Positions 2,328 through 18,457 of a stretch of DNA of 19,339 bases are shown piece by piece. The position numbers and the translations under genes were made by a program. The stretch is from an uncultured Rhodothermales bacterium. Its GTDB lineage: Bacteria > Bacteroidota > Rhodothermia > Rhodothermales > VXPQ01. The DNA is taken from the NCBI GenBank assembly GCA_964487555.1, contig CAZART010000036.1, positions 23,091 to 42,429 of the forward strand, in the 5' to 3' direction. The notes below the pieces were generated by a model. It saw only the letters and a list, made by a program, of their open reading frames with translations, did no database searches and was not told the origin of the DNA. Numbering within the stretch: position 1 is the stretch's first letter; every line of letters starts with the position of its first letter.

Positions 2328-2711
2328 CTACAACCCGGATCGCCGCAGCGCCTCAAGGAGAAGCCAGCTGAGTCGTTCCGTCGTTTCGTCATCCACTGAT
2401 CTCACCTTTACGTGGCGCGTGTTCTTTCCGCTGCCTTCGATTCGCAGCCCGTCACGTCGGACGTCTGCCACATGGTGAACGTACAGCTTGCAGTGGTCAA
2501 GAGCAGGCTGGATGCCGCAGACGACATGGTTCGGCCCTCCGCGACTATAATGCGCATTGGCGACGGAGAGACCTCCGTAGATGTTCTCATTAAAATCCGG
2601 CATCGGCTCGCGGATCATCGTCCGCAAGGATTCCGCCGTCGCTTGTACTGGGGCGTTGAAGGGCGCTATCAGCTCCTCGAACGTGGTGGGCTTCTCGCTA
2701 TGCGTCGCCAT
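2328..2711 (-). CDS. DUF1801 (YdhG-like) domain protein
   Basis: 127 aa. Pattern FEELIAPF...AESLRTMIRE...ENIYGGLSV...HVVCGIQP...KLYVHHV...GSGKNTRHVKVRS...LSWLLLEA matches my memory of PF08818. Start overlaps the flotillin stop by 14 nt (translational coupling). Confidence 0.65.
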   Translation of the reverse strand: MATHSEKPTTFEELIAPFNAPVQATAESLRTMIREPMPDFNENIYGGLSVANAHYSRGGPNHVVCGIQPALDHCKLYVHHVADVRRDGLRIEGSGKNTRHVKVRSVDDETTERLSWLLLEALRRSGL

Positions 2712-4008
2712 GCAAGCCCTTCTTGCCGCTGGGAGGCGTCTCGACGTCCAGCACGTCCCCGTCTTTGCCGCTCATGGAGATGGTTTCTTTCTGTTCGTGG
2801 GCTCGGCGCAGCATACCGGCAATATCGACGCCGGTGGAAGCTTTCAAGCTTTCGAGAAGGGCCGGTGTGGCGCCGGCGATTTGATTGAATACGGCAGGCA
2901 CGCCCTGTCCGGCGCCGCCCCCGTCCACGACGGTCAGTTTGTCGATCTTGAGGTTGTCGACCGTCTTGATGACCTCCTTGAGAATGTCGGGCAGCATCTG
3001 GATGAGGAAGAGGCGTTCGGCGTCGGGTCCGGCCTGCTGCCAGAGGGCGAGCTTTTGCTTGAGCACATCGACCTCGGCCTGTCCATCCTCGAAGATGCGG
3101 GCGGCGTTTCCCTTGGCGATTTCTTCCTTTGCCTTGCGCTCGGCTTCGGCTTTCACGATGACCGTGGCGCGTTGGTGCTTCTCGGCAAGCTCGATCTCCT
3201 GGACGGCGAGCTCCTGCTCGGCAATGGCCCGGGCCACGTCCGCGGCGACGGTAACCTTGGCTTCCTCGGCCTCGGACCTGGCGGCGAGTTGTGCTTTGAC
3301 GATGCGAACATCGTTCTCGGCCTCGGCGATCGATTTGTCCGCCCTGGCCTCTGCCACGCGGGCCGATTCTCGCTGGGTGGCCTCCGTGATCTCAGCTGCG
3401 GCGATGATGTGTGCCGTTTGCTGGCGTCCGATGGCGTCCAGATACCCGCGATCGTCTTCCACGCTCTGGATCTTAAACGTATCAAGTTGCAGGCCGAGGG
3501 CCGAGAGGTCGGTGTCCGCCTCCTCGACGAGCTCGCGGGCGAACTTGAGGCGATCCTCATTGACCTCCTCGGGTGAGAGCAGAGCAACTACGCCGCGGAG
3601 ATTTCCTTCGAGCGTTTCTTTGGCAATCAACTGAATCTCTTCGAGGTTCTTACCGAGAAGCCGCTCGACGGCGTTGTTCAACTCGTTTTCCGTAGACGCC
3701 ACTTTTACGTTGGCAATGGCGCGCACCGAGAGGGGGATGCCGCCCTTCGAGTAGGCGTTCTTCACCGTCAAGTCGATCGGGATCGTATTGAGCGAGAGCC
3801 GATCTACCTCTTCTAGAATCGGTATCCGAAAGCCGCGGCCGCCACGGATAACGCGATAACCAAGAGACGAGCCGTCCGTCAGAGCGCGACGCCGGCCGCT
3901 GAAGATCAGCACCTCGTTCGGCTGGCAGATTTTCAGATTCGCCCTTACGATGCCCAGCACCGTCATGAACGCGAGGATGAGTATGCCGGCGATAATAAAA
4001 GCTTCCAT
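2698..4008 (-). CDS. Flotillin-like SPFH/band-7 protein (FloT/YqiK type)
   Basis: 436 aa. N-terminal hydrophobic helix, SPFH core (RGGRGFRIPILEEV..., NAYSKGGIPLSV...), long Ala/Glu-rich coiled-coil (EA repeats), flotillin C-terminal region. Confidence 0.9.
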   Translation of the reverse strand: MEAFIIAGILILAFMTVLGIVRANLKICQPNEVLIFSGRRRALTDGSSLGYRVIRGGRGFRIPILEEVDRLSLNTIPIDLTVKNAYSKGGIPLSVRAIANVKVASTENELNNAVERLLGKNLEEIQLIAKETLEGNLRGVVALLSPEEVNEDRLKFARELVEEADTDLSALGLQLDTFKIQSVEDDRGYLDAIGRQQTAHIIAAAEITEATQRESARVAEARADKSIAEAENDVRIVKAQLAARSEAEEAKVTVAADVARAIAEQELAVQEIELAEKHQRATVIVKAEAERKAKEEIAKGNAARIFEDGQAEVDVLKQKLALWQQAGPDAERLFLIQMLPDILKEVIKTVDNLKIDKLTVVDGGGAGQGVPAVFNQIAGATPALLESLKASTGVDIAGMLRRAHEQKETISMSGKDGDVLDVETPPSGKKGLHGDA

Positions 4009-4077
4009 AGCGGGTTACGGTCTGTCTTCGGTGCTGGAGCAGCTCCGAATGGTGAACGAACGGGCAGCGGGGCTGCC

Positions 4078-4659
4078 CTACTCCGGTTTAACGACTTCGA
4101 CGACGGATCCGTTGACGCGTATCACTACGACTTCGTCTCCGGGATTGAAAGCGTCCATCGTCTGATTTTCGAATGCGCGGGCCACGAGATGCAGGCTCTG
4201 ACCCCGGGTGACCAGGCTGATCTTACCGCGCCGGTTGCCCTTGAAAGGTATGAGAACCTTGCCTGTCATTCCCTTCAATTCTTTCGTCGATACATCGCTT
4301 GATACGTGCTCGTATCCGACGCGCTTTATGAGATAATTGCCGCCCAGACCGACGAGAGTTCCAACGAGTGCGGCGAGCACTGCGGTAAAGGGTTCTCCGG
4401 TGCCGGCCAGCGAAAGCGCAAGCCCGGTCAAGCCGAAAAACGCGGCGAACAAGAACAGAGCGCGTACCGAGAACAGATCCACTAGATCGGTCCCGGCGGC
4501 GTCGGCAACGGTATTCACCTCACCCTCCAGGTTCACATCGGCATCGGCATCGACGTCGAGGTCTACATCGGCATCGGAATCGCCGCCCCCGAAGAGAGAC
4601 AGAAGAACGAAGAATCCACCTACAAGAAGGCAGATCAGATAGAGGGTCGTCATAGGCAC
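4078..4659 (-). CDS. NfeD-family membrane protein (YqiJ/YuaF-like flotillin partner)
   Basis: 193 aa. N-terminal TM, second TM pair, C-terminal OB-fold beta-barrel (GMTGKVLIPFKGNRRGKISL...GDEVVVIRVNGSVVEV). Immediately upstream of flotillin, the classic nfeD-floT/yqiJK arrangement. Contains an acidic D/V repeat linker (DSDADVDLDVDADADVNLEGEV). Confidence 0.85.
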   Translation of the reverse strand: MPMTTLYLICLLVGGFFVLLSLFGGGDSDADVDLDVDADADVNLEGEVNTVADAAGTDLVDLFSVRALFLFAAFFGLTGLALSLAGTGEPFTAVLAALVGTLVGLGGNYLIKRVGYEHVSSDVSTKELKGMTGKVLIPFKGNRRGKISLVTRGQSLHLVARAFENQTMDAFNPGDEVVVIRVNGSVVEVVKPE

Positions 4660-5942: not shown

Positions 5943-6275
5943 TCAGGGCTTCAGCTGTCGGACGGGTCTTACCTCGATACTGCCTACCCGCGCCGGGGGA
6001 ATGTTTGACGCCACGCGGATGGCGTCGTTCAGGTCGCGGGCGTCGATGAGATAAAACCCGGCGAGCTGCTCCTTCGTTTCGGCGAAGGGGCCGTCGGTAA
6101 TCGACACTTTTCCGCTGCGGACGCGCACAGTCGTAGCCGTCTGCACCGATTCTAGTGCCTCGGCGGCGATGCGCTGACCGCTGTCGTCGAGCATCTGACC
6201 GAAGGCCATACATTCGGCGTCCGGGACGTCGGTCAGCGTGGCTTCATCCATGTAGACCAGGCAAAGGTATTTCAT
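5943..6275 (-). CDS. YciI-like / DGPF-domain protein (YCII-related, PF03795)
   Basis: The track ORF 5943..6521 has a junk Arg/Pro-rich N-terminus. The internal ATG at 6273-6275 gives a 110-aa protein MKYLCLVYMDEATL...ITDGPFAETKEQLAGFYLIDARDLNDAI... carrying the diagnostic DGPF motif. This family is a known genomic partner of ECF42 sigma factors. Confidence 0.8.
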   Translation of the reverse strand: MKYLCLVYMDEATLTDVPDAECMAFGQMLDDSGQRIAAEALESVQTATTVRVRSGKVSITDGPFAETKEQLAGFYLIDARDLNDAIRVASNIPPARVGSIEVRPVRQLKP

Positions 6276-6310
6276 CGTATTCGGTGGAAAATATGGAGGG
6301 GACCGTTCAC

Positions 6311-6342
6311 TATTAGTCGGATAGACAGGCCGGAAATCGACA
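6311..6342 (-). promoter_or_regulatory. Candidate ECF42-type promoter (TGTCGA -35-like, 16 nt, CGAC -10-like) about 40 nt upstream of the DGPF gene ATG
   Basis: The minus strand reads TGTCGA(6342-6337)-TTTCCGGCCTGTCTAT-CCGAC. From memory of the Mascher-lab ECF classification, the ECF42 target motif is TGTCGA in the -35 region and CG(A/T)C in the -10 region. The motif is recalled, not looked up. Confidence 0.35.
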
Positions 6343-6367
6343 ACGGGACTACGCCTTTGAAGGTTCT

Positions 6368-7831
6368 CTAGCTGCGGGCTCCGATATCGACCGCAATCGA
6401 ACGCCACTTTCCTTGATTGAAGCGCAGCGCGCTCAACGCGCACCGCGTGATGTGGCCGAGGAGAATGGCGATCCAGATGTCGATCGGATCGAGGACGGAC
6501 ACCTGTTGAATGATGAAGCACATGCCCAGGGGAATGACGATCTGCGAGACGATCGAGATATAAAGCGGACTCCTCGTGTCGCCGGTTCCCTGAAGCCCGC
6601 CGGTGTACGTGAGCGCAACGGCGATGAAGAGTCCCGATACGCTGAGAATCCGCAGGAGCTGTACTCCGATCTCCACCACGAGCGGCTCATTCATACCGAA
6701 CGCGGCGAGCAGCTGTTCGGGCAGGAAGAGGAAGAAGGCTCCAACGCCCGTAGCAGTGACGACGCCGATACGCGCAGCAACGTGCACGGCTTTTTCGGCT
6801 CGGTCCGCATTGCCGGCGCCGAGGTTCTGGCCTGCAACCGTCGCCGCCGCACCCAGCAGACCGACGGACGTCCATGTGATGAACGAGAAAAGCTGAGTGT
6901 ACGAAACCGCGTAGGCGGCCTGGGCTGCGGCGCTATCTGCGAGCGAGCCGACGAATGCGAGCAGGAACACGCCGCCGACGTTCATGGCGATCCCCTGAAT
7001 GCCGGTGGGCAGCCCAAATCGAAACAGGGCGCGGATGATGCCCCAGTCAGGGCCGAAGCGGCCGCCGCGCGGAAAGGCAACGACCCATCCACCCGTCCAC
7101 AGTTTGATGAGAGCATAGACGGCGACCGCGCCGCCGGCGACGACGGTGCCCATGGCGGCGCCCGTCGTCCCGAACGCGGGAACAGGGCCGAGTCCTGGAA
7201 TGAGGATGATGTTGAGGAGTAGATTCAGCAGCGTGAGGGCGATGCCGAGGCGAAGCGGCGTTTTCGCGTCGCCGGCCGATCGAAGCGCGCCTCCGAGCAT
7301 GAAGAACACGAGCATGCCGCTGCTGAACAGAAACATCGTTCGCAGATAGGGCAGGGCTTCCGTCTGCACTTCCGGGGCGGCATTCACGAGATCGAGAAGC
7401 CACGGTGCGGCGAAGTACCCGAGGGGAGCAAATATTCCCAGCGAGAGGCCCATGGCCGTCAGAAATGCCTGATAGACGGTACGATCCGTCTTCTCCACGT
7501 CACCCGCGCCCACGAAGCGCGCGACGAGGACGCTCATTCCCGTGAAGAGGGAGGTAATGAAGACGATGACGACCAGGAAGATCTGCCAGCTTACGCCGAT
7601 GGCTGCATTTCCGGTGAACCCGACGTAGTGGCCGACGAGGGCATGGTCGACCAGGCCCTGCAGTCCGCCTATCGCATTTTGCAGCATCGTAGGCCAGGCG
7701 ATCTTCCAGACCGCAGGTAGCAAGGGGCCTTCCACAATCGAGCGGTCGTACCGGGGCCGCGTCGGTGGGGGAGGCGGTATGAGCGGCTCGGCACCCGCTG
7801 CGACAGGGGACGACGCGGCGTTATCTTTCAT
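6368..7831 (-). CDS. MATE-family multidrug/toxin efflux transporter (NorM/DinF-like), 12 TM
   Basis: 487 aa. Duplicated 6-TM MATE architecture with typical WPTMLQN..., GLGP..., GLPTGIQ segments. About 35-aa Pro-rich N-terminal extension. The ATG at 7829-7831 overlaps the stop of the upstream small ORF (ATGA). Confidence 0.9.
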   Translation of the reverse strand: MKDNAASSPVAAGAEPLIPPPPPTRPRYDRSIVEGPLLPAVWKIAWPTMLQNAIGGLQGLVDHALVGHYVGFTGNAAIGVSWQIFLVVIVFITSLFTGMSVLVARFVGAGDVEKTDRTVYQAFLTAMGLSLGIFAPLGYFAAPWLLDLVNAAPEVQTEALPYLRTMFLFSSGMLVFFMLGGALRSAGDAKTPLRLGIALTLLNLLLNIILIPGLGPVPAFGTTGAAMGTVVAGGAVAVYALIKLWTGGWVVAFPRGGRFGPDWGIIRALFRFGLPTGIQGIAMNVGGVFLLAFVGSLADSAAAQAAYAVSYTQLFSFITWTSVGLLGAAATVAGQNLGAGNADRAEKAVHVAARIGVVTATGVGAFFLFLPEQLLAAFGMNEPLVVEIGVQLLRILSVSGLFIAVALTYTGGLQGTGDTRSPLYISIVSQIVIPLGMCFIIQQVSVLDPIDIWIAILLGHITRCALSALRFNQGKWRSIAVDIGARS

Positions 7832-8013
7832 TTATGGTCGTTTTCCGGTCGTGGCCGATTCGATTCCCCAATACGCCGATGGTGCGTTTTCATGAATTCG
7901 CGCCAGGTACCGTTCTCGTCGAGGGTGCCCGCGTAGATCCAGAGGTGGGTCATCATGGATCCAATCCGCATCCCAACGGAACGATCCTTCTGCGGATCGA
8001 AGCCGAGGGTCAT
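7828..8013 (-). CDS. Small hypothetical protein (61 aa from ATG 8011-8013; alternatively 71 aa from ATG 8041-8043), translationally coupled to the MATE gene
   Basis: Only the C-terminal part of track ORF 7828..8310 looks coding (MTLGFDPQKDRSVGMRIGSMMTHLWIYAGTLDENGTWREFMKTH...). GC3 is about 70-80% in this frame by my count, there is a GAAGG 7 nt upstream of the ATG, and the stop TGA overlaps the MATE ATG. The upstream Arg-rich part of the ORF is junk. No family recognised. Confidence 0.3.
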   Translation of the reverse strand: MTLGFDPQKDRSVGMRIGSMMTHLWIYAGTLDENGTWREFMKTHHRRIGESNRPRPENDHK

Positions 8014-8331
8014 TACCTTCGACGCATCGCCTCCCCCCGGCATGCTGCCTCGCCCCTTCGGCGGCGAGCCACCGTCCGCCAAGCAAACGTACGGTCTCCG
8101 TGCCTTCGATCTTGTCGTCGGAAAGAGCTTTCTCGGTCGTCGAAGCGCCTTCGAATCTCCAATCGCCGACGAGTTGTTGCAGCCTCTAATGTTCGTGACC
8201 GGGCCGGGCGTACACGACGGCGTGTTCGTGCTGTTTCTGATTCGTTTCCATCGTGGTGATCTTTGATTATGGGGGCGTCTGTACCAGATTGTCGACCGAT
8301 TGCGTGGCAAATCGACGATGCGTGGTGCTTT

Positions 8332-9603
8332 TCATGGTGACAATTCTTCAATCCGGCGCTTCAGGAAACGGCGCTCCGGCTCCTGCCGGGTGAGTTCGAG
8401 GGCTTGTTGGTACGAGGCCCGTGCCTCGGCAGAGCGCCCGAGCCGGCGGCATAAATCGGCCCGTGCCGAATGGGCAAGATAGTAGTCCGAAAGTTCGCCC
8501 CTCGCCAGAATCTCGTCGATGAGATAGAGACCGGCGGCAGCACCATCGCGCATGGCGACCGCCACGGCGCGGTTCAGAGCGATGACCGGGGAGGGGTTCA
8601 CCTGAAGGAGGACGTCATACAGGCCGACAATCTGGTTCCAGTCCGTAGCGTCGGGCGCGGGAGAATCGGCATGGACGGCGGCGATCGCCGCCTGCAGTGA
8701 ATACGGTCCGATGGGACCGGTACGCATGGCCTGCTCGACCAGCGCCGTGCCCTCGGCAATCAGTTCGCTATTCCAGAGGGAACGGTCCTGCTCATTCAAT
8801 AAGATCAAGTCGCCGTTCTCGGTGGACCTCGCAGTCCGGCGCGATTCATGCAGGAGCATCAGCGCCAGAAGCCCCATCACCTCGGGCTCCGGCAGCAGCT
8901 CCACGAGCAGGCGGCCCAGGTAAACGGCCTCCTCGGAAAGATCGGAACGCGTCACGGCGGTACCGGCTGAAGCGGAGTACCCCTCGTTGAATACGAGGTA
9001 GACCACGTGAAGGACGGTATCAAGCCGCTCAGGCAGATCGCGGTGCGCGGGCACTTCATATGGAATACGAGCGTCGCGGATTTTGCGTTTGGCGCGTACG
9101 ATTCGCTGCGCGAGGGTGGAGGGGCTGGTCAGGTAGGCGCGAGCGATTTCTTCCGTCGTGAGACCGCAGACTTCGCGAAGTGTAAGAGCGATCTGCGCGT
9201 CGGCGGGAAGGGCCGGATGACAGCAGGTGAAGATCAGACGGAGTCGGTCGTCTTTGAACTCCTCACCTTCCCACCCGGCAGCATCTTCGGAGGCTTCATA
9301 GAGCCGATCGGCGATTTCCACGAGGGCTGCGTCGAACCGTCCTCTGCGTCGGAGGCGGTCAATGGCACGGAATCGACCCGTCGACACCAGCCATGCCCGC
9401 GGATTCGTGGGCACTCCGCCGGCGGGCCACTGCTCGACGGCGGCGGCGAAGGCATCCTGCAAGGCATCCTCGGCGAGATCAAAGTCGCCGAGAAGGCGGA
9501 TGAGCGTGGCGAGAACGCGTCTCGATTCGGAGCGATACACCTCGTCCACGATGCGCCGGGCATCGGAGCTGTCGGAAGGCATGGGGGAGGACCTATCGAA
9601 CAT
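8332..9603 (-). CDS. ECF sigma factor with C-terminal TPR-like extension (COG4941 / ECF42 group)
   Basis: Sigma-70 region 2 (DEVYRSESRRVLATLIRLLGDFDLAEDALQDAF..WP) and region 4 (LTLREVCGLTTEEIARAYLTSPSTLAQRIVRAKRKI), followed by a ~230-aa helical/TPR-like C-terminal domain. 424 aa from the ATG at 9601-9603. The track ORF extends to 9687 only via a TTG start and a low-complexity leader. No anti-sigma factor follows, as expected for ECF42, and a DGPF protein lies downstream. Confidence 0.8.
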   Translation of the reverse strand: MFDRSSPMPSDSSDARRIVDEVYRSESRRVLATLIRLLGDFDLAEDALQDAFAAAVEQWPAGGVPTNPRAWLVSTGRFRAIDRLRRRGRFDAALVEIADRLYEASEDAAGWEGEEFKDDRLRLIFTCCHPALPADAQIALTLREVCGLTTEEIARAYLTSPSTLAQRIVRAKRKIRDARIPYEVPAHRDLPERLDTVLHVVYLVFNEGYSASAGTAVTRSDLSEEAVYLGRLLVELLPEPEVMGLLALMLLHESRRTARSTENGDLILLNEQDRSLWNSELIAEGTALVEQAMRTGPIGPYSLQAAIAAVHADSPAPDATDWNQIVGLYDVLLQVNPSPVIALNRAVAVAMRDGAAAGLYLIDEILARGELSDYYLAHSARADLCRRLGRSAEARASYQQALELTRQEPERRFLKRRIEELSP

Positions 9604-9746
9604 CGTGGCGGACCAACATACGCATCGGTCTCGCGTTCTTCCAAGAAGTGCAGCGTCTCTTCGTGGCGCGGCCGAATCCAAGGGCAACGGTGTGCAAGAC
9701 GTGAGAACGACGAGAAAGGTGCGAGAAGAATGTGAGCGTCAACGGT

Positions 9747-11890: not shown

Positions 11891-12050
11891 CGATGCCGCA
11901 GGTAGGGGCTAGGTGTCGAAGACTCTCCCCCGAGGTGGGAAAGGAGACGCACGAATGTCGCAGGTAGGGGCGTGGGTGTCGAACTTCACGGCATTTCGGC
12001 GTGGGCTATTCTTTCTCTACGATGCCGCCGGTATAGGGCTGGGTGTCGAA
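11891..12050 (+). repeat. Three degenerate ~30-bp direct repeats (GATGCCGCAGGTAGGGGCTAGGTGTCGAA-like) separated by ~32- and ~37-bp spacers
   Basis: Copies at 11891-11920, ~11953-11983 and 12021-12050, about 85-93% identical with small indels. Each ends in GGTGTCGAA. The third copy lies inside the last ~15 codons of the sulfatase ORF. Confidence 0.7.
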
Positions 12051-13472
12051 CACGTCTCCCTGGCCTCGGACGCGCGGATCTCCGGTGGCGTGCAGCTTTT
12101 CCATCAGACGATTCCACAGCTCGCGCTTGATATCCGTGTAGGCGGTATCGGCGGCCACGTTGCGGAGCTGATGGGGATCCGACCTCAGATCGTACAACTC
12201 GTCGCCCGGGCGCTTTGCGAAGGCAAGATCGAAGAGACGGCGGTGTGCATCGTCTTCGTCGCGGTGTTCATACATATAGTGTTTCGCCGGACCCGCATCG
12301 GTATCGGCATACCAGGCTGGTTGGATGAAGGCCTTTTCAGCGTGCGGCGTGCCTGAAGGCCACCGTTCGGGTCGAAAGTTGCGGATGTAGAGATAATCCG
12401 CGGTGCGAACGGCACGCATTGGGTACCCACCGCCGTCCGGGGCCTCCTGGGACGGAACGTGACGTTCCTTGCCGAAGAACACCACATCTCGCGACGGTTC
12501 GGTTGCGTCCTCCTTCAACAAGCCGGCCAGGCTGCGGCCCGTCATCACGTCGGGCACCTCAGCGCCGGCCATCTCCAGAAACGTGGGTGCAAGGTCCGTG
12601 AGGCTCACAAAGTCCGAGGCATTCGTTCCGGCGTCGACAAGTCCGGGCCCGCGGATCGCGAGCGGCACGCGCGTGCCCATGTCGTACACGCTGCTTTTCG
12701 AACGCGGAAACGGCATACCGTTGTCGCTTGTCACGATCACGACGGTATTGTCGAGCTCGCCGAGGCGGTCCAACAGATCCATCATCTCGCCGAGCTCCGT
12801 ATCGAGCCGCTGTACCTCCACGTAGTAATCAGCCACGTCTCCGCGAACGTCCGGACTATCGGGAAAGATCGCCGGCAGCATGATATCGTCCAACGGCATT
12901 CCGCTCGCCACGCCGGATCCTGTCTCGTAGGGCCGGTGCGGGTCGGTGGTGCCGAACCAGAAGTGGAACGGTGCACCGTCAGGCCGCTCCTCTAGAAAGT
13001 GGCTGAACGAGTCATACCTGGAACCCGCCGGATTCCGCTCGCGCGCTCCCAGTTCCCCCGGCGCCCAGCCTTTCCGGGTGTATCCGACGTGGTAACCATG
13101 CTCTTCAAGCAGATCGGTATAGACCGGATGCTCGGGAGGAAGTGGACCATATAGATTGCCCCCGCCGTCCAGGCGCCAGAAGTGCTGCCCCGTAAGAATC
13201 GCGGCGCGCGACGGCGTACACGAGGGCGAGCTGACATAGGCATGGTCGAACAGCATGCCCTCCCGGGCCACGCGGTCGAAATGCGGCGTGAGGACGACCG
13301 GATCGCCGTATGCCCCGGCATGAGGCCAGCTCCAGTCGTCGGCGATCACAAGGAGTACGTTGGGTGGATCGGTTTCGGCCGGAACAGACCTCCCGTCCAC
13401 GGTGCCCGCGAGGACGAGCACGGCGCCCGCGAGGCCAAGGGGAAGAACGATCGAAAGGGAGAGAGCCTTCAT
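12006..13472 (-). CDS. Formylglycine-dependent sulfatase (arylsulfatase family), secreted
   Basis: 488 aa. N-terminal signal peptide, and the sulfatase signature SSPSCTPSRAAILTG with the CxPxR formylglycine motif (C-T-P-S-R). Confidence 0.9.
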   Translation of the reverse strand: MKALSLSIVLPLGLAGAVLVLAGTVDGRSVPAETDPPNVLLVIADDWSWPHAGAYGDPVVLTPHFDRVAREGMLFDHAYVSSPSCTPSRAAILTGQHFWRLDGGGNLYGPLPPEHPVYTDLLEEHGYHVGYTRKGWAPGELGARERNPAGSRYDSFSHFLEERPDGAPFHFWFGTTDPHRPYETGSGVASGMPLDDIMLPAIFPDSPDVRGDVADYYVEVQRLDTELGEMMDLLDRLGELDNTVVIVTSDNGMPFPRSKSSVYDMGTRVPLAIRGPGLVDAGTNASDFVSLTDLAPTFLEMAGAEVPDVMTGRSLAGLLKEDATEPSRDVVFFGKERHVPSQEAPDGGGYPMRAVRTADYLYIRNFRPERWPSGTPHAEKAFIQPAWYADTDAGPAKHYMYEHRDEDDAHRRLFDLAFAKRPGDELYDLRSDPHQLRNVAADTAYTDIKRELWNRLMEKLHATGDPRVRGQGDVFDTQPYTGGIVEKE

Positions 13473-13501
13473 GGTGATTGTGCCTCGATGAATGCAGCTA
13501 C

Positions 13502-13885
13502 TCAGGATGGAAAGAATCGCCCGCCACTTAGAACGCGTTCGACGGCTTCGAGAATCACGTCGGCGTCGCCTTTGCGAACAAACCCGTCGGCTCCGGCCCG
13601 GCGTGCGGGTTCGGTGTACTGCGACTCATGATGGCCCGACACGACGAGGAGGCGAATCCCGGGAGACGTCGCTCGAAGCGACTCGACGAGGCTCAGTCCG
13701 TTCATCCCCGGTAATGAGATATCGATAATAACCATGTCCGGTGCGAGACCGGGAATCTCCTCAAGCGCCTGTTCGGCCGTGGCGACGGCGCCGCATACGT
13801 GCAGCCCACCGATCGTTTCGAAAAAAAGGATGTAGCCCTCTCGTACTTCGTCGTGGTCCTCGACGATATAGACGCACTTATTCAT
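13502..13885 (-). CDS. Single-domain response regulator (CheY-like receiver, no output domain)
   Basis: From ATG 13883-13885: MNKCVYIVEDHDEVREGY...MVIIDISLPGMNGL...LVVSGHHE...GADGFVRKG (acidic pocket, phospho-acceptor Asp in IIDISLPG, conserved Ser and Lys positions). GGAGG Shine-Dalgarno lies inside the kinase 3' end. Start overlaps the kinase stop (ATGAATAA). Confidence 0.85.
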   Translation of the reverse strand: MNKCVYIVEDHDEVREGYILFFETIGGLHVCGAVATAEQALEEIPGLAPDMVIIDISLPGMNGLSLVESLRATSPGIRLLVVSGHHESQYTEPARRAGADGFVRKGDADVILEAVERVLSGGRFFPS

Positions 13886-15233
13886 AAGGCTCCTCGACCG
13901 ATGCGCCGGCAAGTCCGCTTCCCTCCGTATACGGCACGAAAATCGTCACGCGCGTGCCCGAACCCTGAGAAGAGTCGATGTCGAGTCTACCGCCAAAAAG
14001 GCGTAGCCGCTCCGCCACACTGAACAGTCCGAGGCTCGTCTGGTGGTCGTCGGTGGCGCGGACGCCGGCGACGTCGAAGCCCGAGCCCTGGTCCTCGACT
14101 TCGATGGCAAGCGTACCGTCTCCCGTATAAGCGGTAAGTCGACAGGTGGTTACTCCGGAGTGCTTGATGATGTTGAAGAGGAGCTCGCGAACGAGTTGTA
14201 CGAGCAGACCCTGCTCCTCTTTGCCCCTCGTATCGACGTCATCCGCAATCTCGAGCTGCACTTCGAGACCGTACTGCTCGGACATGTGAGATCCCAGCCA
14301 AAAAAGCGCCGTCTTCAATCCTTCGCCCTCGAGAATCGGCGGGTTCAGCTCGATGGACAGCGTGCGTGAAACGTGAATCGCTCGCTGCGCATATGCGCGG
14401 ATGTCTTCGCACTGAGCTACGAGTGCCTGATCGGCCATTTCAGGCTTTTTCCTCAGATCCATGTCCAGCATCTTGAGCCGCATCTCAACGCCGAATAGAA
14501 GCTGCTGCAGATCGTCATGAAGGACGCGGGAGAGGCGGCGGCGCTCCCTCTGTTCGGCAAGCGTAAGGGACCGAGAGAGAGCCTGCACCTGTTCCGTCCG
14601 CATCCGAACACGCTCCTCGAGCGTCTCGTTGAGCTCTGCCAGCCGCGCTCGCTCTTCGGCCACTTGCGAATGAAGCCGCTCGCGCTCCGTCTCGGATGCC
14701 AGAAGGGCTTCGTGTCGTTTCTGCTGCGTCAGGTCCGTCACGACCAGACAAATGGCATTGAGACCGTCGATGTGTGCGGCGGCCCTCGAGAGAAATACGG
14801 GAATCTGCTCGCCGCCGCGCGTCGTAAACTCGAGTTCGCACTTGGCCGCATCCGGCTGCGCGAGAAACGCTCCGAAGCGTTCGGCAGCGGTCTCGTCTAC
14901 GTAACGATGGATATCACTGCCAATCACCTTCTGGATCGGCATGTGAATGATGCGTGCGAATGCCTGATTGCAGTACAGGATCGTGTGATCTTCGGCGAGG
15001 GTGACCGACCCCTCCTTCATCGTCTCGACGAAGACGCGATATGGATGGTCGGCCCCCCGGAGTGTGTACACCTGCGGATCGTCGGGCTCGCCTACGACTA
15101 CGGCATCTATGCTACCGGTGCGGATGGCCTGGAGAATTTCTTCAGCCTCGTTGAGTTGGCTGCGGAGTTCGGCATTCTCCGCCTGGAGAGATTCGATCTC
15201 TGTCGGCAGATCCGGCGATCGATCACGAGGCAT
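13878..15233 (-). CDS. Cytoplasmic sensor histidine kinase: N-terminal coiled-coil, PAS domain, HisKA_3-type dimerisation/H-box, HATPase_c
   Basis: 451 aa, no TM. Coiled-coil (ESLQAENAELRSQLNEAEEIL). PAS-like region (ILYCNQAFARIIHMP...). H-box of NarX/DesK-type kinases (RRRLSRVLHDDLQQLLFGVEM). N-box (ELLFNIIKHSG). G-box (IEVEDQGSGF ... TRVTI). Starts 6 nt after the kaiB2 stop. Confidence 0.85.
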   Translation of the reverse strand: MPRDRSPDLPTEIESLQAENAELRSQLNEAEEILQAIRTGSIDAVVVGEPDDPQVYTLRGADHPYRVFVETMKEGSVTLAEDHTILYCNQAFARIIHMPIQKVIGSDIHRYVDETAAERFGAFLAQPDAAKCELEFTTRGGEQIPVFLSRAAAHIDGLNAICLVVTDLTQQKRHEALLASETERERLHSQVAEERARLAELNETLEERVRMRTEQVQALSRSLTLAEQRERRRLSRVLHDDLQQLLFGVEMRLKMLDMDLRKKPEMADQALVAQCEDIRAYAQRAIHVSRTLSIELNPPILEGEGLKTALFWLGSHMSEQYGLEVQLEIADDVDTRGKEEQGLLVQLVRELLFNIIKHSGVTTCRLTAYTGDGTLAIEVEDQGSGFDVAGVRATDDHQTSLGLFSVAERLRLFGGRLDIDSSQGSGTRVTIFVPYTEGSGLAGASVEEPYE

Positions 15234-15239
15234 GGCGGC

Positions 15240-15545
15240 TCAATTACTCAGGCCCAGACGCTGAATCACGAGTGAGGCGTTCTCAAGAGTGCCGACGAGC
15301 AGGCGAATCGGCGGCGGATTCTCCTTCACGAGCGTGGGCGTCACCACGATCTGAGCCGTGGCGGCCAGTGCCGGCTGCTGATAGATGTCGATTATGTCCA
15401 GCTCATATTGATTCCGGAGGAATGTATCGCAGAGCGCTCGCAGATTTCTGACGGCTTGCATGGAGCGCGGGGTGGTGCCGGCGATGTAAAGTCGAAGCAC
15501 GAATGAGGCCTCCCGTGGCTTCCCTTCGGTAAACGTCTCCTGCAT
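15240..15545 (-). CDS. kaiB: KaiB-family protein, divergent paralog (KaiB2)
   Basis: 101 aa. LRLYIAGTTPRS..A..NL..LC.....YELDIIDIYQQPALAATAQIVVTPTLVKENPPPIR matches the KaiB/thioredoxin-like core. The C-terminal segment (LLVGTLENASLVIQRLGLSN) departs from canonical KaiB. Confidence 0.85.
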   Translation of the reverse strand: MQETFTEGKPREASFVLRLYIAGTTPRSMQAVRNLRALCDTFLRNQYELDIIDIYQQPALAATAQIVVTPTLVKENPPPIRLLVGTLENASLVIQRLGLSN

Positions 15546-15620
15546 ACTCGCTCCTCGTTTGCCGATATCGGATTCTAGTTACGCCGTATTATTGCGCAGC
15601 ATTTTTGGGATCGTGGCTCA

Positions 15621-15947
15621 TTACTCAGGTGGCCGCAGGTCCAGACCTACCAGCACGCGCTCGGTGTTCGAGAGATCGCCGATGATCTTTCGCATCGGCT
15701 CGGGCAGCTTGCGTACCAGCGTGGGGATAGCGAAGATCTGGTCGCCCTGTGCGAGTTGAGGATTTTCGAGCAGGTCCACGATTTCAATTTCGTACCGACC
15801 CGACAAATGTTCCTCGCACAGTCGCTTGAGATTGTCGAATGCCGCGATGCACTTCGGCGTTTGCCCCGCCACATACAGGCGCAGCAGATACGGCTTCGCC
15901 GAAGGCGCCTCGTCAGGAGGTGAGCTGCCGCGTGAAATCTCATTCAT
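15621..15947 (-). CDS. kaiB: KaiB circadian-clock protein homolog (canonical, KaiB1)
   Basis: 108 aa. [83 protein letters not shown] is near-colinear with cyanobacterial KaiB (…LKLYVAGNTPNS…[47 protein letters not shown]). Confidence 0.9.
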
Positions 15948-16003
15948 CGCACATAGGCTTGGTTAACGGGAGGATCACGTCAATTCTTGCTGTCTGGCCG
16001 TTC

Positions 16004-16023
16004 CGTATCCGGTTCAGGATACG
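16004..16023 (-). other. Perfect 7-bp-stem hairpin (CGTATCC-ggttca-GGATACG) in the kaiC-kaiB1 intergenic region
   Basis: Seen directly in the sequence. No U-tract follows on the minus transcript, so it is not an obvious terminator. Confidence 0.5.
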
Positions 16024-16041
16024 TGCGGCGCTGCGCGGCTG

Positions 16042-17505
16042 TCAAACCGGCGACGGAGCAGACGTCTTCCGGGCATCGACGAGCTCCACACCGCGATTCG
16101 TAATTTTCATCTCGCGGACCTGATTAGAGTGCGCCATCCCCCGTGACTTAAGTACGAACAGCGCACGGTTGCGTTCGCCGCCGCTCTCAAGGGCTTGCAG
16201 CAGCAGCCACGTATCCATGAGTGAGGAGATCCCGACGTCCGTCTTCTCCTGCTCGATGCGGCTGCTCGTGAGGCTTGTGAACATGGCGGTGATTTGCCGC
16301 TCCTTCAGAAAGTCGATAAGCCGGGTGAGCGCGGCGCCCGCCTCGTCAATGCTGGAGACGGCCATGAGGTTCGTCACCGGGTCGATTACGACCGCCGATG
16401 GATCTACCTTTTCGACCAGCTTCTGCATGGCGATGAGATGCATCTCGAGGCCATAGAGCTGAGGGCGCCTTGCGTGGATATGAAGGAGGTCCTTTTCCAG
16501 CCAGCGGTCGAGTTGGAGTCCGATCGACAGCATATTGCGAGCGAGCTGCCGGGGCGATTCCTCAAACGCTACATAGAGGCACCGTTCTCCGCGCTGGCAG
16601 GCGGCATTGACGAAGTGGGCTGCCAGGCTTGTTTTTCCCGTGCCTGCCGTTCCTGAGATGAGAACGGAGCTGCCCCGGTAGAAACCCCCGCCCACAAACA
16701 TGTCGTCGAGGCTTGCGACTCCTGTCGAAACCTGATCGGAACTCACGTCGTGGGTGAGTCCGAGCGACGTAATCGGGAGCACCGAGATGCCGTCGTCGTC
16801 AATGAGGAACGGATACTCATTGGTCCCATGGCTGGAGCCGCGATACTTCACAATGCGCATACGCCGCGTTGAGATCTGATTTGCCACGCGATGGTCGAGC
16901 ATAATGACGCAATCCGACACGTACTCCTCGAGACCGTGACGCGTCATGGTGCCGTCGCCTTTCTCGGCCGTGACGATGGCGGTGATTTCGTGCTCGTTGA
17001 GCCATCGAAAGAGGCGGCGCAGCTCGGCGCGAAGAATCAACTCGTTGGATAATCCCGCGAAGAGGGCCTCGATGGTATCGAGTACGACCCGCTTCGCACC
17101 AACCTTCTTTATGGCGAATGATAACCGGACAAATATGCCTTCGAGATCGTAGTCGCCCGTCTCGGCGATTTCGCTTCGTTCGATCCGCACGTGATCGAGC
17201 GCCAGAAGATCGCGCTCGACGAGCTCGTGGAGATTGAATCCGAGCGAAGCGACGTTCTGCGCGAGCTCTTCGCTCGTCTCCTCGAACGTCATGAAGACGC
17301 CCGGCTCTTGGTAGTCGAGCGCCCCGCGCACGAGGAACTGGGCGGCAAAAAGTGTTTTCCCGCAGCCGGGTCCGCCGCATACGAGTGTCGTACGACTGCG
17401 CGGAAGTCCGCCTTTGGTGATCTCATCAAGTCCGTAGATGCCGGTACCAGACTTCAGGACGCCGTTTGGCGATGAACCGGGATCGGAGTTTGGATGTTCG
17501 GCCAT
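16042..17505 (-). CDS. kaiC: KaiC (double RecA-like CI/CII ATPase/autokinase), short C-terminus
   Basis: 487 aa. CI Walker A GGPGCGKT with catalytic TFEET. CII Walker A GTAGTGKT with catalytic AFEES. Phospho-site region TDVGISSLMDT aligns to cyanobacterial TDSHISTITDT (Ser/Ser instead of Ser/Thr). Only ~13 aa follow the last conserved block, so there is no A-loop/KaiA-binding tail. Confidence 0.9.
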   Translation of the reverse strand: MAEHPNSDPGSSPNGVLKSGTGIYGLDEITKGGLPRSRTTLVCGGPGCGKTLFAAQFLVRGALDYQEPGVFMTFEETSEELAQNVASLGFNLHELVERDLLALDHVRIERSEIAETGDYDLEGIFVRLSFAIKKVGAKRVVLDTIEALFAGLSNELILRAELRRLFRWLNEHEITAIVTAEKGDGTMTRHGLEEYVSDCVIMLDHRVANQISTRRMRIVKYRGSSHGTNEYPFLIDDDGISVLPITSLGLTHDVSSDQVSTGVASLDDMFVGGGFYRGSSVLISGTAGTGKTSLAAHFVNAACQRGERCLYVAFEESPRQLARNMLSIGLQLDRWLEKDLLHIHARRPQLYGLEMHLIAMQKLVEKVDPSAVVIDPVTNLMAVSSIDEAGAALTRLIDFLKERQITAMFTSLTSSRIEQEKTDVGISSLMDTWLLLQALESGGERNRALFVLKSRGMAHSNQVREMKITNRGVELVDARKTSAPSPV

Positions 17506-17683
17506 CGGTGTGACTAAGACTGTACGAAATCACTATACCGGCAGAGCACATCGTGCCGGCGTGCGACGCCGATTTGCAGGATGACTGCGAAAGAGTGGTT
17601 TAGTCTAAAGAGTCGTTCAGTCTACGGACATCGACTCCGGCCTACAAATGAAATCCGAGTTCGTTGCTCGATAGCGACAGAAC

Positions 17684-18457
17684 TCACAGGCGCTCTCGCA
17701 CCTCGTCCAGATACTTACGGATGCGGCGCGCGTTCACGCCCAGATCTCCACGACCTACGCGCGAGACCGAGCGAATATCAAGAACCGTACGCCCGTTCGC
17801 CGGCGTCAAGCGAACGACGACGTCGTCATCGAACCCGTACCAGAACGTTTCGTCCACCGCTTCAATGCGGCCTGCGGCCGGGTCGGCGTCGACGATGGAC
17901 CATCCCATTTCACGAGCCGCCTCGAGGGCCACCTCGAACGCATGCTCGGGTGGAGCTGCCAGTTGTAGAGGTTCTATCTCGGGGTAAGCTTCCCGCTGCT
18001 GAGCGGCTACTTCCGGGCCGCCGTACTCAGTCGGATTCGGTGCGTCGGCACGGAGCGGTGAGATGGCGACGAAGTCGGGTGGATTTTCAACATCCGTCGT
18101 GATGTCATGAATAGGAGGAAACCGCTGCCCCATGCGCTGTACCTGCCACGGCACGATGAACGTGGCGAGGGCGATCATAACGGCGAGCAGGGCGATCGGA
18201 AATCCCTTTCGAGATGCGCCCGGCCGCGTTCGGTAGAGAGCGATGAGGGAAAGGACGGCGGCGGCGATACCGCCGTAGGCGGCCCAGCGAAGCATGGTGA
18301 ATCCCGTTTGGAAGTGCCACCAATCCCATCGGGTGCCGAACGAAGAGAGGAGTGCGAGGCAGGCCGTCGCGACTGCCAGGAGCGCGACGCCGACGGCGAA
18401 GCGCGAGCGCGGTCGGGCAGATCTGGGAGACAAGGATGCCGAGGCTGGAGATTCCAT
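17684..18457 (-). CDS. DUF1499-family protein, N-terminally membrane anchored
   Basis: 257 aa. Two N-terminal hydrophobic helices. C-terminal motif FWYGFDDDVVVRLTPANGRTVLDIRSVSRVGRGDLGVNARRIRKYL matches my memory of the DUF1499 signature (RSxSRxGxxDxGVNxxR). Confidence 0.6.
   Translation of the reverse strand: MESPASASLSPRSARPRSRFAVGVALLAVATACLALLSSFGTRWDWWHFQTGFTMLRWAAYGGIAAAVLSLIALYRTRPGASRKGFPIALLAVMIALATFIVPWQVQRMGQRFPPIHDITTDVENPPDFVAISPLRADAPNPTEYGGPEVAAQQREAYPEIEPLQLAAPPEHAFEVALEAAREMGWSIVDADPAAGRIEAVDETFWYGFDDDVVVRLTPANGRTVLDIRSVSRVGRGDLGVNARRIRKYLDEVRERL

Follow-up and report, generated by a model that had tools for sequence, protein, structure and literature searches.

By which route do timers built of KaiB and KaiC, without KaiA, pass their state on to the cell? 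The PAS kinase encoded beside such timers has been described in the literature consulted just as a neighbour. The question is raised by a locus of an uncultured Rhodothermales bacterium (assembly GCA_964487555.1, contig CAZART010000036.1, positions 23,091 to 42,429 of the forward strand); this whole stretch of 19,339 nucleotides is referred to here as the window. On its minus strand, between positions 13502 and 17505, lie five co-oriented genes, coding for KaiC, two KaiB paralogues (KaiB1 and KaiB2), a PAS/HisKA_3 sensor histidine kinase and a receiver-only regulator.

We propose, with a probability of roughly 0.7, that this locus encodes a KaiA-independent KaiB-KaiC module of the KaiC2 type, which belongs to the operon family of Rhodobacter sphaeroides and Rhodopseudomonas palustris and is coupled to a dedicated two-component pair. 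KaiC would autophosphorylate on Ser427 and Ser428 without KaiA, and KaiB1, as the conserved fold-switching KaiB, would bind the ADP-bound CI ring and push KaiC towards dephosphorylation. The kinase would sense the state of KaiC, or of KaiC with KaiB, through its N-terminal helix and PAS module and would then set the phosphorylation of a NarL-type receiver without DNA-binding domain, which may act through contact with another protein or may serve as sink or relay for phosphate. KaiB2 would represent an old second KaiB lineage, whose gene always comes after that of the first KaiB and before the output gene. The residues holding KaiB in its ground-state fold appear to be lost in the KaiB2 clade, and the protein probably stays in the KaiC-binding thioredoxin-like fold, probably tuning the coupling of KaiC to the kinase without being required for it.

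An earlier note on this DNA had named the five genes, and profile searches against Pfam and NCBIfam bear out all five identities. They agree likewise with its description of the kinase as a HisKA_3 protein without KaiB-like domain, of an operon without DNA-binding regulator (the receiver protein matches Response_reg only in Pfam), and of a window without kaiA: no plausible open reading frame (ORF) of the 19-kb window matches the KaiA family. Its view that the architecture was uncharacterised proved overstated. The kaiC-kaiB-PAS/histidine kinase operon is known (PMC4794148, PMC9478674), a Pseudomonas KaiC with its kinase and receiver has been studied experimentally, and gene-neighbourhood comparison found the two-KaiB form again in 12 of 27 reference loci and in a cultured Pararhizobium. 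The locus is thus a variant, with a diverged second KaiB and a coil-less KaiC, within a widespread and already noted operon type. It offers a starting point for dissecting how primordial Kai timers produce their output, and current understanding is not overturned by it.

Relatives of the cassette and the helix and PAS module

Operons of kaiC, kaiB and a PAS/kinase gene have been noted outside cyanobacteria in several studies (PMC4794148, PMC5520375, PMC9478674, PMC10931921); those of R. palustris and R. sphaeroides were described by Ma et al. 2016 (PMC4794148), and PAS genes sharing an operon with kaiBC outside cyanobacteria are numerous (PMC9478674). The present locus, with its co-oriented and closely spaced kaiC, kaiB and PAS signalling genes, is of the same kind. 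Scanning GTDB with one genome for each species yielded 27 reference loci with KaiC identities of 49-67%, spanning Acidobacteriota, Verrucomicrobiota, Bacteroidota, Cyanobacteria, Desulfobacterota and Firmicutes. The order kaiC-kaiB-kaiB-output was found in 12 of them and kaiC-kaiB-output in five. Altogether, kaiC, kaiB and a PAS signalling gene follow each other in 17 GTDB loci, four metagenomic loci and three plasmids of cultured bacteria.

A closer relative, metagenomic locus L028, carries all five genes, with identities of 85% for KaiC (584 amino acids), 82% for KaiB1, 73% for KaiB2, 73% for the kinase and 72% for the receiver (127 amino acids). All five genes are also present in metagenomic locus L029 (KaiC of 587 amino acids) and in the more distant L030/L031 (KaiB2 63%, kinase 48%, KaiC of 592 amino acids). 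As three divergent metagenomic relatives retain the full set, the cassette can be regarded as a conserved unit. Among cultured bacteria, the order is kaiC-kaiB-HWE kinase in R. sphaeroides KD131 (L033; plasmid pRSKD131A), kaiC-kaiB-PAS/kinase in Sinorhizobium sp. B11 and kaiC-kaiB-kaiB-hybrid kinase in Pararhizobium qamdonense T808 (L034), there on the conjugative plasmid p3 (NZ_CP119568.1, 288354-292408). The plasmid-borne cassettes of Pararhizobium and R. sphaeroides suggest that the cassette moves horizontally. Strain T808, being a cultured carrier of the two-KaiB form, offers itself as a test organism.

The kinase consists, according to Pfam, of PAS_9, HisKA_3 (PF07730) and HATPase_c (PF02518) domains. 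Its phosphoacceptor motif contains His239 in LHDDLQQ, the N-box lies at residue 354 and the DxGxG motif (G1 box) at residue 381; the nearest NCBIfam models are of the MctS/UhpB/LiaS/NarQ type. A Pfam scan detected no KaiB-like domain in it, its N-terminus being formed by a helix and the PAS domain. The protein was split at residue 180 and the N-terminal part (residues 12-180) was used as a query. This helix and PAS module matches the gene following kaiB in 17 GTDB loci (54-135 bits), always at the extreme N-terminus of the protein, and in four metagenomic relatives (216-299 bits). The R. sphaeroides KD131 kinase matches with 54 bits and the Pararhizobium protein with 107 bits, while other PAS domains present in these output proteins score about 0 bits against the module.

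The module was found in every complete Kai-linked output gene, regardless of the output domain. The catalytic part is HisKA_3 in the window and in L002, L003, L005, L020 and L030, HisKA in L004, L007 and L025, a hybrid kinase-receiver in L010, HWE/HisKA_2 in L019 and the cyanobacterial L011, and a PAS-GGDEF cyclase in L001. Partner genes vary as well: receiver-only proteins in the window, L028-L030 and L007, a receiver (REC) with LuxR helix-turn-helix (GerE) just upstream of kaiC in L005, a REC-PAS-GGDEF-EAL protein in L011 and a second hybrid kinase in L004. It looks as if one clock-facing dock had been swapped onto many outputs. The helix and PAS module is a concrete candidate for such a dock, and we read the locus as one in which the kinase would dock via its own PAS module, with KaiB2 at most modulating that coupling. 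Precedents for contacts of this sort exist. The N-terminal PAS domain of a KaiC-adjacent kinase of Pseudomonas putida, which belongs to a genus without KaiB, is sufficient for KaiC binding (bioRxiv 10.1101/2022.01.26.477890), and the PAS domains of KidA bind fold-switched KaiB (PMC9478674).

KaiC and the loss of its coiled coil

KaiC matches the Pfam family KaiC (PF06745, E=6.6e-116) in two stretches, corresponding to tandem RecA-like domains, and passes the NCBIfam equivalog NF006799 (702 bits, cut-off 408). Both Walker A motifs, both catalytic glutamate pairs and the Ser-Ser phosphorylation site pointed out in the earlier note are in place: GGPGCGKT at residues 44-51 and GTAGTGKT at residues 285-292, glutamates at 75-76 and 315-316, and Ser427-Ser428 (codons 16222-16227), which align with S413/S414 of R. 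sphaeroides KaiC at the positions equivalent to S431/T432. The closest solved structures are those of R. sphaeroides KaiC (8DBA/8DB3; 605 bits, about 65% identity), and cyanobacterial KaiC reaches only about 315-320 bits.

R. sphaeroides KaiC is of the KaiA-independent "hourglass" type. The ATP/ADP ratio sets its phosphorylation state and KaiB speeds its dephosphorylation; its clade is marked by the Ser-Ser sites and by a C-terminal extension, a 12-helix coiled coil linking two hexamers (PMC10076222). The KaiC of the window shares with this KaiC2 type the Ser-Ser sites and the close overall similarity, and lacks the C-terminal coiled-coil extension. It ends ten residues past the conserved core and 9 residues past the last position that can be aligned with cyanobacterial KaiC, so it has no A-loop tail either. 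The earlier note had recorded this missing tail. Its absence stands, but the comparison with relatives points to something other than a simply absent KaiA-binding A-loop, namely a recent loss of the coiled coil within KaiC's own coil-bearing clade.

The coil-bearing orthologues in L028, L029 and L030 have KaiC proteins of 584-592 amino acids, and, with two exceptions, full-length KaiC ORFs among the GTDB relatives measure 555-623 amino acids. KaiC of the window ends with ...LVDARKTSAPSPV directly before its stop codon, so that the extension, about 50 residues or more, is missing. In L028 the frame continues for about 113 codons past ...LVD through a heptad-rich segment, up to a TGA that overlaps the ATG of kaiB1 (ATGAATGA). 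In the window an in-frame TGA stands at 16044-16042. It is followed by 31 sense codons in the KaiC frame (33 counting two that overlap the kaiB1 start), and the frame beyond the TGA reaches the same ATGAATGA junction at which KaiC of L028 stops. The net deficit of the tail relative to its relatives amounts to about 70 codons. DNA alignment of the tail with L028 and L029 gave nothing alignable after ...LVD, and no deletion boundaries were found; the KaiC body is without frameshift relative to L028. The 94-nt spacer between kaiC and kaiB1 is thus probably a remnant of the lost KaiC tail.

An assembly artefact was considered as the source of the short KaiC and rejected. A 1,097-bp contig from a separate sequencing run (L032, 97.9% nucleotide identity) has a KaiC end and a 94-nt spacer identical to those of the window, so that the short allele is real and shared within a population. 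A natural coil-less KaiC2 with close relatives that keep the coil makes a ready-made pair for comparison.

The behaviour of the truncated protein can be anticipated from R. sphaeroides KaiC truncated by engineering at residue 490. This protein is a hexamer with normal nucleotide exchange and autophosphorylation, shows little autodephosphorylation and falls apart on KaiB binding (PMC10076222). By analogy, KaiC of the window should be a hexamer that phosphorylates, or charges, and resets poorly.

Such a defect leaves room for a reading other than a timer with two-component output, one that we hold to be possible though unlikely: a stress or growth-phase module without timekeeping function, as in the KaiC homologues of Legionella and Pseudomonas, perhaps degenerating after the loss of the coil. 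Non-circadian roles have been reported for Legionella KaiBC and Pseudomonas KaiC, the surrounding genes are of a heterotroph type (sulfatase, amidohydrolase, ECF sigma factor, MATE pump) with nothing related to light in the window, the coil needed for fast dephosphorylation is gone, the KaiC frame having a stop codon in its place, and KaiB2 differs from that of L032 by five synonymous and five non-synonymous changes. This reading, however, agrees poorly with catalytic motifs that are all intact, with a KaiC 85% identical to that of L028 and free of frameshifts, and with KaiB1, which is strongly constrained (six synonymous changes to one non-synonymous against L032). The truncated allele moreover persists in two samples, and this KaiC shares about 65% identity with one whose hourglass function is proven.

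The two KaiBs, the receiver and the direction of signalling

Both KaiBs match Pfam PF07689 well above its cut-off of 27 bits, KaiB1 with 94 bits and KaiB2 with 80 bits. Against the NCBIfam KaiB equivalogs (cut-offs 110 and 145 bits) KaiB2 scores 70 bits, below both, and KaiB1 scores 105 bits, just under the lower one; KaiB1 matches R. sphaeroides KaiB (8FWJ_M) with 111 bits. An alignment of KaiBs from all loci separates them into two families: an a-type (...VDLLxNP...IPTLVRKLP...), to which the first copy belongs, and a b-type (...IDIYQQP...PTLVKxLP...), to which the second belongs. With profile hidden Markov models (HMMs) built from database searches with KaiB1 and KaiB2, the a-type precedes the b-type in all 16 loci with two KaiBs, as it does in Pararhizobium; R. 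sphaeroides KaiB is classed as a-type and KaiB2 of the window as b-type. Relatives of KaiB1 are abundant (all 8000 scored candidates pass E<=1e-5, hence at least 8000, and the best 120 are 71-99% identical). The search with KaiB2 returned 473 matches, and identities of at least 60% occurred in eight clusters only. By these comparisons KaiB2 is to be placed in a rare, diverged clade of the b-type, and the tandem KaiBs in the sequence record form an ordered, apparently ancient pair, a conserved a-type followed by a fast-evolving b-type.

The two families differ at positions of the KaiB fold switch. In the numbering of Synechococcus elongatus KaiB, all 121 a-type sequences have G88 and 117 of them have D90, and KaiB1 keeps both. 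Of 112 b-type KaiBs, 84 have G88 and 61 have D90. In all nine members of the KaiB2 clade D78, G88 and D90 are replaced by T78, R88 and G90. The G88A/D90R mutant of S. elongatus KaiB is locked in the KaiC-binding fold (PMC9478674), and Legionella KaiB (4KUN), with Ala89 at the G88 equivalent, crystallises in the thioredoxin-like KaiC-binding fold. KaiB2, which has neither G88 nor D90, is therefore likely kept in the thioredoxin-like fold.

A different arrangement is found in three metagenome-assembled genomes of the cyanobacterium Coleofasciculus (L006, L009 and L012). Here a coil-bearing KaiC2-type gene stands with a single b-like KaiB having C88/S90, and neither is followed by a gene that has the PAS output module. 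The output gene is therefore not universal in the KaiC2 family.

The position and sequence of KaiB2 bear on the proposal, made in the earlier note, that the locus is a SasA kinase split in two. KaiB2 would be the detachable equivalent of the SasA N-domain, which binds the KaiC CI ring and recruits a kinase unable to reach KaiC alone. The stop codon of KaiB2 lies 6 nt before the kinase start and the b-type KaiB always adjoins the output gene; the KaiB2 clade lacks G88/D90, resembling the constitutively switched SasA N-domain and the locked KaiB mutants. KaiB2, and not KaiB1, also matches SasA weakly (33.5 bits with the N-terminal part of the NCBIfam SasA model, E=0.003 with solved SasA N-domains). 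This last similarity is not specific, as SasA N-domains score 20-29 bits against the b-type and KaiB2-clade profiles, no better than the 25 bits against ordinary cyanobacterial KaiB (their 9-12 bits with the a-type profile reflect the narrowness of that profile), and a particular kinship of KaiB2 with the SasA N-domain was rejected. G88 and D90 are kept, besides, in many b-type KaiBs.

The helix and PAS module occurs also where KaiB is single, be it a-type only (L002, L019, L021 and R. sphaeroides) or b-type only (L001 and L014), so that a b-type KaiB is not required for it; and the corresponding Pseudomonas PAS domain binds KaiC in a genome without KaiB. In 16 loci, pairwise distances of the module follow those of KaiC (partial Mantel r=0.80, p=0.0002, after correction for b-type KaiB) rather than those of b-type KaiB (r=0.25, p=0.056, after correction for KaiC, a marginal residual co-variation in favour of the split) or a-type KaiB (r=-0.10), although shared ancestry confounds these correlations, which constitute weak evidence. 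The split arrangement is thus weakly supported and we regard it as improbable.

We are similarly doubtful of a related possibility, in which the tandem KaiBs divide their labour: the a-type would be the slow fold-switching protein that resets KaiC, and the b-type, locked here, would be a permanent KaiC-binding adaptor that couples or gates the PAS kinase. If this were true, the b-type KaiB would do the work of the SasA N-domain as a separate protein, and the coil-less KaiC would show coupling that compensates for, or exploits, a timer unable to reset itself.

The receiver protein contains a Response_reg domain with E9/D10, the acceptor D55 (codon 13721-13723), S83 and K105. Its best solved relatives are the LuxR-family receiver 3CZ5 and NarL (1A04), and its NCBIfam matches cover the receiver half of NarL-type models only. 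The chain of 127 amino acids ends after the receiver domain, and no LuxR/GerE helix-turn-helix was found on it. Receiver-only orthologues occur in L028 (127 amino acids), L029 (129) and L030 (149). A truncated gene was considered as an explanation and rejected, as three divergent relatives carry the same domain-only protein. With a HisKA_3 kinase, a NarL-type receiver is the expected partner class, here minus its DNA-binding domain; H-box, HATPase_c and a receiver with acceptor aspartate together make up a two-component pair of the HisKA_3/NarL type. Single-domain receivers are also the typical partners of KaiC-linked kinases in Pseudomonas (bioRxiv 10.1101/2022.01.26.477890).

The absence of a DNA-binding domain from the receiver, the NarL-type receiver-like N-domain of KaiA3 and the receiver-like N-domain of KaiA, both of which act on KaiC, the interaction of the P. 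putida receiver with KaiC, and the proposal of a redox input for the R. sphaeroides kaiBC-linked kinase (PMC5520375, PMC10931921) could all be accommodated by an input pathway, in which the PAS kinase responds to redox, to oxygen or to some other signal and, together with the receiver, resets KaiC/KaiB, the output of the timer lying elsewhere. We nevertheless consider this improbable too. The PAS module stays constant while the catalytic part varies (HisKA_3, HisKA, HWE or GGDEF) and partners include REC-GGDEF-EAL and LuxR proteins, a pattern more readily expected of a single dock that faces the clock and serves many outputs than of a single sensor; and the receiver has no KaiA-like C-terminal domain.

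Several points weigh against a KaiC2-type timer read by its own PAS kinase. The direction of signalling is one of them, the R. sphaeroides kinase having been proposed as a redox input to KaiBC as well (PMC5520375). The Mantel correlations carry the confounding by ancestry mentioned above. AlphaFold2 models of the KaiBs, made with small clade-only alignments, reached a mean confidence (pLDDT, predicted local distance difference test) of 59.0 for KaiB2 and 58.7 for KaiB1, and their C-terminal halves are unreliable. Finally, the coil-less KaiC may behave differently from the truncated R. sphaeroides protein.

Gene layout and comparison with known systems

The features of the cassette are listed in Table 1. 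Consecutive genes are separated by 94 nt (kaiC/kaiB1), 75 nt (kaiB1/kaiB2) and 6 nt (kaiB2/kinase), and the kinase and receiver genes overlap by 8 nt. The spacings given in the earlier note, and the tight packing it had taken for one transcript, are confirmed by these distances, which are consistent with a single transcript. A consensus scan of positions 13300-17800 found promoter- and terminator-like sites in numbers at or below the expectation from shuffled sequence. At the KaiB2/kinase junction, where an internal promoter or terminator would have spoken for separate transcription of the kinase, the scan gave neither a promoter-like nor a terminator-like site. One promoter-like hexamer pair (16045..16016) lies in the kaiC-kaiB1 spacer, such sites being not above chance frequency. 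An Rfam scan of the whole window gave no match.

Table 1. Features of the kai cassette, in window coordinates
Feature	Position	Strand	Description
kaiC	16042..17505	-	487 amino acids; predicted KaiC2-type double-domain ATPase/autokinase
kaiC-kaiB1 spacer	15948..16041	-	94 nt
kaiB1	15621..15947	-	108 amino acids; a-type, canonical KaiB
kaiB2	15240..15545	-	101 amino acids; b-type paralogue; GAGGAG ribosome-binding site upstream
Sensor histidine kinase	13878..15233	-	451 amino acids; N-terminal helix + PAS, HisKA_3, HATPase_c
Kai-associated helix+PAS module of kinase	14694..15200	-	residues 12-180; presumed docking part
Stand-alone receiver	13502..13885	-	127 amino acids; ATG start preceded by GAGGAG

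On one side the cassette is followed, 29 nt past the receiver gene, by a co-oriented gene for a sulfatase with signal peptide, presumably secreted (13472..12006, minus strand), which the earlier note had omitted. A DUF1499 gene (17684-18457, minus strand) is located upstream. The sulfatase (12006-13472) and DUF1499 flanks are kept in L029, with DUF1499 upstream and the sulfatase downstream, and are not kept in L030, where an IS66-family transposase fragment follows the receiver gene. These flanks are lineage markers outside the cassette proper.

The remaining part of the window carries further genes on the minus strand. An ORF of more than 686 codons (2-2059) is cut by the left edge of the window; its product has a membrane anchor at the N-terminus and, as judged by eye alone, looks like the periplasmic chaperone PpiD. 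A Band 7/SPFH (flotillin-like) gene and, beside it, a gene for a membrane protein of 193 amino acids without Pfam match lie at 2698-4659, which corresponds to the usual SPFH/NfeD-like pairing as judged from the arrangement only. Co-oriented genes for a YCII-domain protein, a MatE efflux pump, a DUF1579 protein and an ECF-type sigma factor (DUF6596 with a tetratricopeptide repeat (TPR) tail) occupy 5943-9687. In the ORF list the YCII frame shares about 150 nt with the MatE gene, and its true start is probably an internal methionine (MKYLCLVY...).

As for tandem kaiB genes, the literature searched, which left most subscription journals outside, contained only cyanobacterial paralogues in separate loci and no tandem a/b pairs. 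The ordered a/b KaiB pair, the helix and PAS module common to different output domains, the natural coil-less KaiC within a coil-bearing clade, and the loss of G88/D90 in the clade of KaiB2 all appear to be undescribed in the same literature.

Several known systems resemble the locus in one part each. Legionella pneumophila KaiB (4KUN) resembles KaiB2 in being non-cyanobacterial, in having no glycine at the fold-switch position and in its thioredoxin-like fold in the crystal. It differs as the sole KaiB of its operon, and its similarity to KaiB2 is low (41 bits). KidA of S. elongatus, whose N-terminal PAS domains bind fold-switched KaiB (PMC9478674), sets a precedent for contact between PAS and KaiB, but it is a multi-PAS GGDEF-EAL protein encoded outside the kai operon and serving the KaiABC oscillator. 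In Pseudomonas (bioRxiv 10.1101/2022.01.26.477890) a KaiC homologue shares an operon with a kinase and a receiver-only regulator, again without DNA-binding regulator. There is no KaiB at all, in contrast to the window, and the Pseudomonas groups of KaiC are more distant; the PAS domains are likened by position and function.

The SasA-RpaA pathway of S. elongatus is alike in that a KaiC-reading kinase phosphorylates a response regulator and that an element of thioredoxin-like KaiB fold takes part in KaiC binding. In SasA, however, the KaiB-like domain is in the same chain, the phosphoacceptor domain is HisKA (PF00512) and the target RpaA is an OmpR-type DNA-binding protein, whereas the kinase of the window combines PAS with HisKA_3, has no KaiB-like domain and is accompanied by a NarL-type receiver without DNA-binding domain. 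Judging by domain composition, the locus is not a SasA-RpaA system.

Closer parallels are found among the purple bacteria named at the outset. In R. palustris (PMC4794148), kaiC and kaiB without kaiA are followed by a PAS histidine kinase gene in a predicted single transcript, and the role of the system is proto-circadian and hourglass-like; its KaiB is single and the published account of the operon includes no receiver, the likeness being one of description. The hourglass of R. sphaeroides KD131 (Pitsawong et al. 2023, PMC10076222) agrees with the locus in KaiC (605 bits, about 65% identity, Ser-Ser sites), in the a-type KaiB, in the absence of kaiA beside the operon, in the order kaiC-kaiB-kinase and in the helix and PAS module of the kinase. 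To this plan the window adds a b-type KaiB and a receiver gene, with a kinase core of the HisKA_3 instead of the HWE type, and it is without the KaiC coiled coil responsible in R. sphaeroides for making the dodecamer and for driving dephosphorylation.

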